This document shows, piece after piece, positions 24,889 through 27,798 of a stretch of 33,585 bases of DNA. The stretch lies in the IMG/VR virus record IMGVR_UViG_3300029650_000190. The stretch is one strand, 5' to 3'. Every line of letters starts with the position of its first letter. The stretch's first letter is position 1. The position numbers and the translations under genes were made by a program. The stretch comes from a virus. Taxonomy: Duplodnaviria; Heunggongvirae; Uroviricota; Caudoviricetes; Peduoviridae. The notes under the pieces were generated by a model that saw only the letters and a list, made by a program, of their open reading frames with translations, was not told where the DNA came from and searched no databases.

Positions 24889-24893
24889 ACATC

Positions 24894-24915
24894 GCCGCCT
24901 GCGGGCGGCTTTTTT
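24894..24915 (+). terminator. Rho-independent terminator after Q
   Basis: gccgcc-tgcg-ggcggc stem-loop at 24894..24909 followed by tttttt (24910..24915), 6 nt after the Q stop. Confidence 0.7.
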
Positions 24916-25057
24916 ACACCCCGTCATCACGCCCTCACACGCTCACCACCGCACAAAACAGCCCGCAGACACACCAACGCCCCGGCGCACAATCTAAACG
25001 CCATTACGACGCGCTGAGACGCTGAAAAAATAAAATCAGCACCACCGCCAGCGCGCA

Positions 25058-25076
25058 GTGCTTTCCCCGCCTCGCC
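25058..25076. other. cos: cos cohesive-end site (19-nt P2-type cohesive end)
   Basis: gtgctttccccgcctcgcc at 25058..25076 is the exact reverse complement of the P2 cohesive end GGCGAGGCGGGGAAAGCAC as I recall it; located just beyond Q as in P2. Confidence 0.75.
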
Positions 25077-25266
25077 CGCCCGCTTCATGAGGCGGTTTTA
25101 ATGCACTTGCATGAATGGCCTAAAGTACGCCAGTTCTGACACTGCAAAGTTAGAAAATGCCTAACAGGTACATGCAAAATGATGCATCAAATGAATTCAT
25201 ACTGAAATACCCCCCCAACCACATAGCTAAGCATCCACATCTTTACATCTAACTCACTAAATTCTC

Positions 25267-25295
25267 TTGAATAAATCAAAAAGTTAGGTTAAATC
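25267..25295 (+). promoter_or_regulatory. Candidate sigma70 promoter for the cargo ATPase gene (TTGAAT-N17-TAAATC)
   Basis: Hexamers read at 25267..25272 and 25290..25295 with a 17-bp spacer, about 70 bp upstream of the ATG at 25364; AGAGGG RBS 6-8 nt before the start. Confidence 0.4.
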
Positions 25296-25363
25296 TCTGT
25301 CGTTGAGGAAGGCAACCTCGAACACTTAAGGCCAAATATAAAAAGAATAAGAAGAGGGATAAA

Positions 25364-27571
25364 ATGAAATTAAAACTCAAAAACGTAACAAGCTATCACA
25401 AAGAATATTTTACTGAGTTAGATTTGTCCAAAAAAATAAACATATTGTATGGACAAAATGGTTGTGGAAAATCTACCATATCAAATTATTTTTACAATCC
25501 TAAAGACACCGCCTATAAGGAATGTGTATGCGAACCCATCGATAATTATCGAACTCTAGTCTACAACTCAAAATATATAGAAGATAATTTTTATAATGCA
25601 AAAGAGCAAAAAGGTATATTTACCCTCAGTCAAAAAAATGCAGAAATTGAAAAAATACTATCTGAAAAAGAAGAGCTAAACAAATCACTAGCACATCAGC
25701 ATAAAGAAAAAAAAGAATTTATCGAAAAACTCCATGAAGCGAAAAACAAAAAAGAGCAAGAGTGCATAAATTCCATATGGAATAAGACCAAAGACATAAG
25801 AAGCTCAGAATTGAAACAATTAATGAAAGGTCAAATAGGAAGCAAAGCCACTTTCTATTACCATCTAAAAAAGTATACTCCACAAACTGATATTGATATA
25901 AAATCATTAATACAATCTTATAGCAAACTTCTCGAGTTTAAAGGAAAAGAAATACCTCTGATAACTCCTTATAAGGGATATATTTTATCTGAAGAAACTC
26001 AAAAAACATTATCCACACCAATTATTGACTCTAGCAACAGCTATTTATCTGAAGCAATAAAAGAGCTACAAAATATTGATTGGATTAAACAAGGCAAAGA
26101 GCAATATTTAAATGGAGAAATTTGTCCATTTTGCCAAAGGGACACAATAGATGATAATTTTATTAAAGCCATTGAATCTATCTTTGATGAAACATACTCA
26201 AGAAAAGTAGATCAAATACAACAAATAAAACTATCTTATGATAATGCCATTAAAAATCATCATGAAGAAATAAAGAGTAACATTTTATCATGTGAGGTGA
26301 TAAACCAAGACGAAAAAGATAAAAGCCTTTCATATGTTAAGGCATTAGAAACTATTGCAGAAAAAAACATTAAATTATTGGATAATAAAATAGAAAATCC
26401 ATCTATAAGCATTGTGCTGGAATTTGAAAAGTCGATAGAGGAAAAACTATTAGAAGATATAGAACAATACAACAATAAAATTAACGAGTTCAATGACAAA
26501 GTAAAAAGATTTAATAATAGCGAAATAGATATTCGCGAAAAGATGTGGGCAGCAATCAGAGACTTATGTAGCGCGGAATTTGAAATACTATCAGACTGCG
26601 AAAGAAACTTTCAAGAAAAATATGAAAACGCTGCATCCTTCATGCAGGAAATAAAAAGAAAAGAAGAGATCAACACAAATGAAATCAATGAACTAAGAAA
26701 TAAAACATCAAGTGTAGATGCAACAATAGATGCAATAAACTCACGACTTAAATTTCTTGGCATCTCTGGTTTTAGCATTGATAAACACGCCGAACTCAAA
26801 GATAAGTATATAATATCCCGCGATGGAAACAATAGAAAACAAGATGTATATCGGTCATTAAGCGAAGGTGAAAAAACATTAATAACGTTTCTATATTTTT
26901 TAGAATGTTGCAAGGGTAAAACAAATGAAAATGATACTGATATGCGTGATAAACTCATAGTTATAGATGATCCTATATCAAGTCTATCTCAAAACTATGT
27001 TTTCGACATAGCATCCATGATCCATCATGACATAATTGAAAAAGGCATTTCATCAAAAATAATAATCCTCACCCATAATCTTTATTTCTTCCATGAGTTA
27101 ATAAAACTCGCCTCTAAAAAAGGAATAAACTTTAAACGGGACTACTTTCTTGGCAGAATAAACAAAAATGAATTTAGCACCATTAGTGCTATAGATAAAA
27201 AAAGTGTGCAAAATGAATACCAATCCCTTTGGCAAGTATTAAAAGATGCAAAAGAGAAAAAAATCAACAAAATAATAATCCCAAATATTATGAGAAATAT
27301 ACTTGAGTATTACTTTGCATTTGTTCATAGAACTGACGCATTAGAGGCAAAGCTTACTGAATTAACAAATGATGAAAATAACAGCCATTTCCGTGCCTTT
27401 TACAGATATATAAACAGAGGCTCTCACTCCGACGCAATAAATATAACAGATATGGGCGATATTGAACCTGAGAAATACTTAGAACTCTTGCACAAAATAT
27501 TCAGAATGACAGGTGATGAGAAACATTACTTAACAATGATGGGTGAAGAAGAGGTAAATGTTACCGCTTAG
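25364..27571 (+). CDS. Cargo gene at the cos/A (tin-old) variable locus: 735-aa split ABC-type ATPase with long inserted region carrying a CxxC motif and a C-terminal putative nuclease domain; RloC/PrrC-like (AAA_13-type) candidate anti-phage abortive-infection protein
   Basis: Walker A GQNGCGKST (aa 30-38, nt 25451..25477); CPFC (aa 254-257, nt 26123..26134); signature-like LSEGEK (about aa 498-503); Walker B DKLIVIDD (aa 529-536, from nt 26948); H-loop IILTHN (about aa 565-570); C-terminal domain with RNILE (R-x3-E) and downstream His residues; strongly AT-rich relative to the phage backbone; opposite orientation to A, like P2 old. Confidence 0.8.
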   Translation: MKLKLKNVTSYHKEYFTELDLSKKINILYGQNGCGKSTISNYFYNPKDTAYKECVCEPIDNYRTLVYNSKYIEDNFYNAKEQKGIFTLSQKNAEIEKILSEKEELNKSLAHQHKEKKEFIEKLHEAKNKKEQECINSIWNKTKDIRSSELKQLMKGQIGSKATFYYHLKKYTPQTDIDIKSLIQSYSKLLEFKGKEIPLITPYKGYILSEETQKTLSTPIIDSSNSYLSEAIKELQNIDWIKQGKEQYLNGEICPFCQRDTIDDNFIKAIESIFDETYSRKVDQIQQIKLSYDNAIKNHHEEIKSNILSCEVINQDEKDKSLSYVKALETIAEKNIKLLDNKIENPSISIVLEFEKSIEEKLLEDIEQYNNKINEFNDKVKRFNNSEIDIREKMWAAIRDLCSAEFEILSDCERNFQEKYENAASFMQEIKRKEEINTNEINELRNKTSSVDATIDAINSRLKFLGISGFSIDKHAELKDKYIISRDGNNRKQDVYRSLSEGEKTLITFLYFLECCKGKTNENDTDMRDKLIVIDDPISSLSQNYVFDIASMIHHDIIEKGISSKIIILTHNLYFFHELIKLASKKGINFKRDYFLGRINKNEFSTISAIDKKSVQNEYQSLWQVLKDAKEKKINKIIIPNIMRNILEYYFAFVHRTDALEAKLTELTNDENNSHFRAFYRYINRGSHSDAINITDMGDIEPEKYLELLHKIFRMTGDEKHYLTMMGEEEVNVTA

Positions 27572-27798
27572 GCCGCATATTACCGATTCGGGTAAGAACG
27601 ACGGTGCTTACGCACCGTCTCCCAGCGCCCAAAGCGGTAGCGGTTGTACTGTCGTACATTCACTAACCTTAACATGAGATTATCTCCATGCCGGCACCAT
27701 TGTTGCCAATGGCAGCCTTTATACCCTTTGTATAAAGCTAATACTAAGAGCATTGCTAGGTAGATTTCCCAAGCGGTAACGTGGGTATTCTAAGACAA

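Follow-up and report, generated by a model that had tools for sequence, protein, structure and literature searches.

A P2 hotspot cassette encoding a probable RloC-type anticodon nuclease and a linked structured RNA with a small open reading frame

The viral record IMGVR_UViG_3300029650_000190 is a P2-like (Peduovirus) prophage of 33,585 nucleotides, referred to here as the window, whose strand is opposite to that of the standard P2 map. Between its cos site and its replication gene A lies a 2.7-kb AT-rich cassette (25107-27834) that replaces the orf91, tin and old genes of P2 and was acquired horizontally. The cassette consists of two convergent units. The first encodes a 735-residue ATPase that is probably a tRNA-cutting anti-phage protein of the RloC type, as predicted from its motifs. 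The second is a small structured RNA with an open reading frame (ORF) for a 31-residue peptide, an element that is apparently undescribed. We consider it likely that the cassette joins a latent anticodon nuclease, which would abort superinfection, to a small structured mRNA or micropeptide that likely modulates the nuclease. The features discussed below are listed in Table 1.

The interval is the cargo slot of a published P2 defence hotspot. Homology to P2 (NC_001895) ends at 25106, about 30 bp beyond cos, and restarts at 27835; the equivalent interval of P2 spans 3.26 kb and holds orf91, tin and old. Homology breaks off at the same places in Yersinia phages YpM_50 and YpM_22, the cdt-carrying “P2” of O157:H43, 569R9 and pro147. 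Most of the nine loci compared share these breakpoints. Of the eight comparators besides P2, seven have the left breakpoint at 25105-25116 and the cdt phage has it at 25140; the right breakpoint falls at 27834/27835, with an exception at 27998 in pro483. An earlier reading of this DNA, made from the sequence alone, had taken the whole of 24889-27798 as replaced cargo. Its interior is indeed swapped, but positions 24889-25106 belong to the conserved core, including cos and the terminator tQ, and the swapped segment runs from about 25107 to 27834. The tQ hairpin itself (24894-24909) lies within the P2-homologous block and corresponds to the tQ annotated at 160-181 of P2.

The sequence-only reading had also bounded the modular swap by cos and the end of A. 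The swap is supported, but its right boundary lies inside A, 36 nt from the 3' end of the gene. After a conserved ...DEW, the A proteins end in PGFSTVMEWT (P2), PGFITKCELEHKIK, SWFYCYSEQ, RWYIVDGRR or PGFSTNI, tails of 4-14 residues that differ from phage to phage. Because these tails diverge 36 nt before the gene end, the final 12 codons of A travel with the cargo. The GC content is 0.60 in 25000-25099, 0.39 in 25100-25199 and 0.24-0.36 along the gene that follows, a transition that had been correctly placed at about 25100. The interior as a whole has a GC content of 0.30, compared with 0.53-0.59 outside, and the cargo coding sequence has 0.302 overall and 0.264 at third codon positions, compared with 0.53 for A and Q. 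The predicted loss of the P2 genes was borne out, since the best tblastn E-values for tin, old and orf91 equivalents across the whole window were 0.09-1.3.

The cassette is rare. Comparison with P2-like genomes had been put forward as the check on whether the 735-residue gene is part of their core, and it showed that the cargo is not universal. Of 50,697 phage records, 94 contain the flanks, with 94-97% identity, and none carries the interior at high identity. At megablast level, the interior matched none of the 50,697 records, and its sole relative there is in Enterobacter phage ENT4 (71%). Among 5426 complete Escherichia coli genomes, the Q/cos flank is present in 2153 (3086 places) and the cargo, at no less than 95% identity, in 13, each with a single chromosomal copy. 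The cargo leader is confined to the 13 genomes with this allele, and no copy of the cargo was found in the plasmid collection. In E. coli LR-58-2, the cargo and its left flank are 100% identical to those of the window. Two related E. coli loci were inspected, one of them a 71% relative, and both lie in the Q/A slot.

In other phages and prophages, the slot holds orf91-tin-old (P2), orf91 with a hypothetical gene, cdtABC, DUF4209, Fic/VbhT, DUF4238, or retron Ec48 with a second reverse transcriptase. The present interval thus has the position between Q/cos and A, the conserved flanks around a variable interior, the rarity and the atypical base composition of cargo at hotspot #1. In E. coli, 1,650 gene arrangements have been counted over 18,150 gpA-gpQ loci (Rousset 2022, PMC9122126), and the same position was described by Vassallo 2022 (PMC9519451). 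An arrangement with a lone ‘AAA_13’ gene is present in the supplementary files of the former study (PMC9122126). Because the hotspot is published (PMC9122126, PMC9519451), the swap interpretation is right yet a rediscovery: the swap is real, already known, and one more instance of a documented hotspot to which it adds nothing new. As a separate observation, pro147 (locus L010, 1417-5790) carries cargo on both sides of cos. The retron Ec48 effector and reverse transcriptase lie between a shortened Q and cos (cos match at 3629-3693), and a second reverse transcriptase-like gene lies between cos and A. Insertions are therefore also possible on the Q side of cos.

The larger gene of the cassette had been described as convergent with A and close to it, which agrees with the ORF at 25364-27571 on the plus strand. 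Its product matches the PADLOC family PDC-S06 (PDLC04886) over its full length (E-value 3e-254, 844 bits), with residues 2-728 aligned to positions 4-724 of a 727-position profile. A secondary match to the PADLOC PrrC profile covers residues 434-716 (5e-16), and there are weak PADLOC matches to LmuB, AriA and HEC. The motifs of an ATP-binding cassette (ABC) ATPase are complete: a Walker A GQNGCGKS at residues 30-37, LSEGE at 499-503, LIVIDD at 531-536 and a switch histidine at H571. The coiled-coil insert carries a CxxC motif, CPFC at 254-257 (C254, C257), and the C-terminal region carries a triad of the form R644-x3-E648-x39-S687-H688. Among 33 homologues, some with as little as 19% identity, not one of these ATPase, CxxC and triad residues varies. 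The AlphaFold2 model, with a predicted local distance difference test (pLDDT) score of 81.8, places them in a split nucleotide-binding head, long helices (90-141 and 276-447) with the CxxC in a loop, and a helical C-terminal domain. Homologues occur across many phyla as single genes, and the name that IMG derives from COG for this exact protein is ‘wobble nucleotide-excising tRNase’. In NCBIfam, the ATPase had no meaningful match.

These features correspond to a published definition. RloC proteins combine PrrC-like ABC motifs with a coiled-coil insert bearing a CX2C zinc hook and an Arg-X3-Glu-X36-52-His triad, often with Ser before the His, in 658-897 residues (PMC2610378). At the level of sequence, the cargo protein has every one of these family characters, namely the ABC motifs, the CxxC insert, R-x3-E-x39-SH, the size and the homology to PrrC. 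Two other identities were considered and rejected. The protein is not PrrC, given its coiled-coil insert, its doubled size and the lack of hsd genes in the slot or in annotated homologous loci. Nor is it a member of the OLD family: blastp of Old against the cargo protein gave a best E-value of 0.6, and no TOPRIM match was found in Pfam.

The second unit occupies what had been described as about 230 bp between the A stop and the 735-residue gene. This interval measures 227 bp (27572-27798), and it is not a mere spacer but belongs to the cassette. It is 80-90% identical in nucleotide sequence across divergent cassettes, more than both flanking coding sequences; the ATPases share about 60% amino acid identity and the A tails differ. 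A structured RNA is predicted from the minus strand, with a minimum free energy of -98.4 kcal/mol for 221 nt (z = -8.0, 200 shuffles). Its ends are joined by a 13-bp closing stem, in which GTTACCGCTTGGG (27780-27768) pairs with CCTAAGCGGTAAC (27572-27560), and on the opposite strand the ATPase gene reaches into the 3' arm with its final codons and stop. A closing stem of 9-16 bp is found in all 28 ATPase-linked units, at the same relative position and with lineage-specific sequences.

Covariation supports this fold. In an alignment of 24 sequences, analysed with RNAalifold and by pair counts, compensatory changes occur in 7 of the 11 pairs of the closing stem and in 4 of the 8 pairs of helix 2 (27717-27737). 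Paired cells amount to 99.6% in the closing stem and to 96.6% overall, compared with 33-50% when the partners are slid, and none of 500 shuffles reached the observed score. The closing stems were located by search, and a 9-bp stem with G-U pairs allowed is expected by chance in about half of such searches, which is not so for stems of 13-16 bp. Because the stems were picked by searching, a short stem is weak evidence in itself; the case is carried by the long stems, the independent placement of columns by MAFFT and the compensatory changes.

Both small hairpins pointed out in the sequence-only reading exist. The one placed at 27601-27618 extends over 27600-27619 with an 8-bp stem, GACGGTGC-TTAC-GCACCGTC, and lies inside the small ORF. 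The one at 27697-27712 has a 6-bp stem, of which one pair (27698-27711) covaries as C-G, T-A and A-T among enterobacterial variants. Since the RNA has a z-score of -8.0 and its helices covary across lineages, the hairpins are not products of chance. The in-ORF hairpin rests on complementary conserved codons for Val and His; of 18 units, 17 use GTG for the former and 16 use CAC for the latter. In the Pseudomonas units, a hairpin forms at the same codons with a different sequence and a register shift of 1 nt. Upstream, a putative sigma-70 promoter straddles the A stop; both hexamers are kept in 16 divergent cassettes with a variable spacer between them, which is consistent with its use for the small RNA. 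A search of 24800-27900 against Rfam at permissive E-values returned RT-6 alone, at 22.1 bits and thus below its gathering score of 46.7. The identity of a retron non-coding RNA was rejected: flanking inverted repeats are present, but the slot holds no reverse transcriptase, and the RT-6 match is sub-threshold.

By its pattern of substitution, the small ORF is truly coding. Its frame stays open in each of the 18 units, its substitutions fall at the three codon positions in the ratio 1093:926:2561, and its codon differences are 1595 synonymous to 1371 nonsynonymous in frame, compared with 354/2720 and 143/2876 in the shifted frames; the conclusion follows from this conserved frame, codon-position bias and synonymous excess. 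The 16 peptides compared are 31-34 residues long with 12 invariant residues, and matches to the peptide hidden Markov model have E-values of 1e-18 to 1e-22. The window's peptide is Arg-rich (8 of its 31 residues) and lacks a hydrophobic stretch. It had no match in Pfam, NCBIfam or PADLOC, four RefSeq records carry no annotation of the RNA or ORF, and a search of the full-text literature for the peptide sequence strings found no paper. A longer reading of 57 residues (start 27753) was rejected, as its ATG is missing in four other aligned cassettes while the ATG at 27675 and its Shine-Dalgarno (SD) sequence are universal. Judged by these signatures of conservation, the supposed spacer is a functional member of the cassette and not junction debris.

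The RNA and peptide unit travels with the ATPase. When the ATPase was taken as the anchor, the unit turned up no more than about 400 nt from its 3' end in 13 of 80 genome loci in other genera, all with ATPases among the closer relatives. These loci come from Pseudomonas, Stutzerimonas, Vibrio, Photobacterium, Neptuniibacter, Pectobacterium, Celerinatantimonas, an unclassified gammaproteobacterial metagenome-assembled genome (MAG) and a Ureibacillus MAG, and only one of the 13 adjoins a homologue of P2 A. The unit is convergent with the ATPase in most of them and co-directional in Pseudomonas and Stutzerimonas. Starting from the peptide, a full-length ATPase lies within about 260 nt in 33 of 36 viral contigs, 24 times in the P2 Q/A slot and 9 times elsewhere. 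The covariance model R1 finds the RNA beside this ATPase subfamily only, at 114-212 bits, and beside none of the more distant ATPases. Seven scanned phage Q-cos-A loci with other cargo (L003, L005-L010) have neither RNA nor peptide. Most likely, the RNA and peptide serve the ATPase as a partner in regulation or immunity.

Alternatively, the unit could be an independent selfish module, either an addiction element resembling a type I toxin or an insertion bounded by inverted repeats, that hitch-hikes beside the ATPase. We regard this as rather unlikely, although several results speak for it. The unit has a promoter of its own, as predicted, and lies either way round with respect to the ATPase; some close relatives of the ATPase (L017-L019, L023, L055) do not have it beside them; and three peptide homologues have no ATPase and lie beside an integrase, an SRAP gene or unknown genes. 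In mRNAs of the hok type, a closing stem between the 5' and 3' ends buries the SD and AUG, and the closing stem predicted here recalls that arrangement. On the other hand, the linkage is tight, as 33 of 36 peptide-anchored loci have the ATPase and the unit always lies no more than about 400 nt from its 3' end. It also spans Enterobacterales, Pseudomonas, Vibrionaceae and a Bacillales MAG, and the unit occurs in none of the seven hotspot loci with other cargo. The peptide, Arg-rich and without a hydrophobic segment, is unlike type I membrane toxins, and the copies without an ATPase score 34-50 bits on the RNA model, compared with 114-212 bits for the linked ones. The linkage is nonetheless incomplete in both directions, which argues against an obligatory antitoxin.

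The three peptide loci that lack an ATPase are L121 (4695-5090), L124 (4917-5087) and L127 (2419-2577). One of them is convergent with a phage integrase, and L127 has a canonical terminator after the ORF in place of the closing stem.

The preferred reading of the cassette, as an RloC-type nuclease with a modulating partner, leads to a mechanism in which two convergent units would cooperate. RloC of Geobacillus is a latent tRNase that is switched by its DNA-dependent ATPase and zinc hook, with no need for an external silencer (PMC3458546). By analogy with this enzyme, the 735-residue protein may follow a similar logic of latency and switching: a split ABC ATPase head, a Rad50-like coiled coil with a CxxC hook at its tip and a C-terminal domain with the anticodon-nuclease triad would stay latent in the lysogen. 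The ATPase and hook would sense a signal linked to infection, such as DNA ends, and turn the nuclease on. The active nuclease would then cut tRNA anticodon loops, translation would stop, and the superinfecting phage would be aborted. The second unit would be an RNA of about 220 nt that has its own promoter at the A end, is closed by the long-range stem between its 5' and 3' ends and encodes the Arg-rich peptide, and it would act as the regulatory or immunity partner of the ATPase.

A more specific form of this idea, which we put forward tentatively and think doubtful as it stands, is that this stand-alone RloC-like subfamily forms a two-component system in which the end-closed mRNA of about 220 nt, with its Arg-rich peptide of 31-34 residues, sets or releases the latency of the nuclease. 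The effector in such a system may be the peptide, the RNA or the translation of the RNA. In convergent arrangements only, the 3' end of the ATPase mRNA could serve as an antisense to the small RNA.

A further alternative concerns the ATPase itself, which might be a DNA-sensing defence protein of the Rad50/SMC type with an effector other than a tRNase. It would resemble LmuB, Septu PtuA or AriA in acting with a host or phage partner, or its C-terminal domain would act on another RNA or DNA. We judge this improbable. By Foldseek, Rad50 is the top structural match, with SMC heads, Lamassu LmuB, retron ATPases and AriA as further neighbours, the weak PADLOC matches to LmuB, AriA and HEC point the same way, and the tRNase activity is itself predicted from sequence. 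These matches cover the ATPase head and coiled coil only, however. The 120 C-terminal residues carry the invariant R-x3-E...S-H at RloC spacing, the PrrC profile extends to residue 716, and a gene for a nuclease partner is absent from the slot.

While the anticodon nuclease remains the preferred reading of the ATPase, a number of results count against it. A phmmer search of PDB with the 735-residue protein returned nothing at E-values up to 1, and a profile search of PDB recovered the heads of Rad50, SMC and AriA only, with no PrrC or RloC structure. The structural model is weakest around H688, with pLDDT below 50 at residues 687-695. PDC-S06 is listed in PADLOC as a candidate family only, and no experiment was found on the cargo protein or on other members of that family. 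By implication of a 2025 preprint, DefenseFinder does not recognise an E. coli ATPase of the PDC-S06 family, and the protein may therefore fall outside the RloC model of that tool. For the ATPase gene, no promoter scoring at least 9 of 12 was found in 25107-25363. Finally, the gene is frameshifted in JNE21-009 (locus L001, 6264-8470) and split by ISEc12, an IS21-family element, in the type strain ATCC 11775 / DSM 30083 (locus L012, 1-4500); the ATPase gene is therefore dispensable. In the genomes with the split and the frameshifted gene, the downstream small RNA and ORF are intact or nearly so, the copy in JNE21-009 differing at its last codon.

It is very unlikely that the AT-rich gene is a lysogenic-conversion factor outside defence, serving virulence, plasmid maintenance or DNA repair. 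The slot does carry cdtABC and partition systems in other phages (PMC9122126), and UniRef names one relative a ‘DNA repair ATPase’. Yet the best full-length match is to a family of defence candidates, the anticodon-nuclease triad is invariant, and homologues that stand as single genes over many phyla are typical of defence genes. Least credible of all is the view that the 230-bp interval is a bidirectional terminator or junction with incidental hairpins and ORF: it does lie between two convergent stops and contain hairpins, but these all lack a T tail and no terminator was called there in the scan, the unit is kept about 175-290 nt downstream of the ATPase in the co-directional Pseudomonas loci, and the idea is refuted by conservation above that of both flanking coding regions, by a strong coding signal and by compensatory changes in a stem of 200-nt range.

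Table 1. Features of the Q-cos-A interval and its flanks (positions in the window)
Feature	Position	Strand	Remarks
Portal gene Q	23854..24888	+	Pfam Phage_portal; 96-97% identity to P2-like phages up to the breakpoint; left flank, not cargo
tQ intrinsic terminator	24894..24915	+	GCCGCC-TGCG-GGCGGC followed by a T run; from terminator scan; conserved core
cos, 19-nt cohesive end	25058..25076	-	Reverse complement of GGCGAGGCGGGGAAAGCAC; exact match to cosL/cosR of NC_001895
Left end of swapped segment, 5' leader of cargo gene	25107..25363	+	GC 0.37; SD-like GAGGG 7 nt before the ATG
Cargo gene, 735-residue AAA_13 / PDC-S06 ABC ATPase	25364..27571	+	Pfam AAA_13, 4e-103, end to end
Structured RNA (predicted), about 220 nt (221)	27560..27780	-	Conserved; 13-bp closing stem; z = -8.0; covariation
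Small ORF, 31 residues	27580..27675	-	MLRLVNVRQYNRYRFGRWETVRKHRRSYPNR and stop; SD GGAG at 27686-27683; ATG at 27675; stop at 27580-27582
In-ORF hairpin	27600..27619	-	Within codons E-T-V-R-K-H-R of the small ORF; helix 4; 96.9% paired; one-sided changes only
Two 5' untranslated region hairpins of small RNA	27697..27712 and 27717..27737	-	Both 5' of the small ORF
Putative sigma-70 promoter of small RNA	27787..27815	-	-35 TTGATC (27815-27810); -10 TAGAAT (27792-27787); straddles A stop; scan score 9/12
Variable C-terminal tail of A, last 12 codons and stop	27799..27834	-	WKQFFSGFDLFK in sense order; part of the swapped segment
Replication gene A, conserved part (right flank)	27835..30087	-	Pfam Phage_GPA, 2e-123

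Some features outside the cassette were also re-examined. Gene A lies on the minus strand with its stop at 27799, and residues 1-754 of the P2 A protein align to 30087-27826 with 96.6% identity. Because of this alignment and the RefSeq annotation of a near-identical prophage, the true start of A is probably the ATG at 30087 (762 residues), not the TTG at 30129 given in the ORF list (776 residues). A 53-residue ORF over cos (24927-25088, minus strand) was dismissed as spurious, having a sub-threshold VacA2 match alone and lying inside the P2-conserved block. The window has a second AT-rich island at 7743-9930 (GC 0.34-0.35), flanked by two minus-strand genes, one for the tail sheath (6552-7742) and one for tail-fibre assembly (9931-10458). 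Its position is that of Z/fun in P2, termed ‘hotspot #2’ in Vassallo 2022. It contains a 345-residue ORF (8528-9565, minus strand) with no PADLOC match and no Pfam match above threshold.

The value of the cassette lies in its contents. It is a compact E. coli representative, in a natural prophage, of PDC-S06, a candidate family that by sequence resembles RloC-type tRNA nucleases; a predicted defence gene thereby becomes testable in its native host. In addition, what appeared to be a spacer is a conserved structured RNA with a micro-ORF that travels with an ATPase subfamily across several bacterial orders. The papers on RloC raise the question of how a stand-alone RloC is silenced after lateral transfer, and the linked RNA and peptide offer a concrete candidate for such control that can be mutated. 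If the two-component proposal were true, it would reveal a layer of RNA or micropeptide control that has not been described for PrrC, RloC or the systems of the P2 hotspots and that annotation has missed. More generally, “single-gene” systems at hotspots may be mis-scored when RNA genes and genes of fewer than 40 codons are ignored.

One of the closest known systems is RloC of Geobacillus kaustophilus (Davidov & Kaufmann 2008, PMC2610378; Klaiman 2012, PMC3458546). The cargo protein resembles it in its ABC motifs, its coiled-coil insert with CxxC, its triad spacing and its size, and also in being encoded by a stand-alone, laterally transferred gene without a linked restriction-modification system. 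It differs in that its family bears no label but PDC-S06 or ‘AAA family ATPase’ and is likened to GkaRloC through the published motif definition, and in its linked structured RNA and peptide, which have not been described for RloC.

PrrC is a protein of about 400 residues that lacks a coiled-coil or zinc-hook insert and is always found in a type Ic hsd locus, by which it is silenced. The likeness to PrrC-EcoprrI consists of profile homology over the C-terminal half (5e-16) and a triad of the same type, whereas the cargo protein has 735 residues with an insert and no hsd locus. The small RNA can be compared with hok/sok, as a small-ORF mRNA on a mobile element with a long-range 5'-3' stem, a predicted pairing of its SD and AUG and a putative promoter of its own. 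Its peptide is strongly basic rather than hydrophobic, however, no antisense RNA gene was identified, and there is no sequence or Rfam similarity.

PARIS, from the P4 and P2 hotspots, is likewise cos-adjacent cargo with an ABC/SMC-like ATPase sensor and tRNA cleavage as its outcome, the last being putative in the present case. AriA of PARIS is a weak neighbour of the cargo ATPase head in both structure and sequence. PARIS comprises two proteins, with a TOPRIM effector in AriB, whereas the putative nuclease of the cargo protein is fused to the ATPase and is of the PrrC/RloC type. Lastly, the cassette can be set against the old-tin-orf91 locus of P2, reportedly treated by Odegrip in 2006. The cassette has no similarity to Old, Tin or Orf91, its junction lies 36 nt inside A, and it has a small RNA gene of its own. 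Nevertheless, both loci occupy the same slot from Q and cos to A with the same flanks, both are AT-rich with a main gene convergent with A, and superinfection exclusion is presumed for both.

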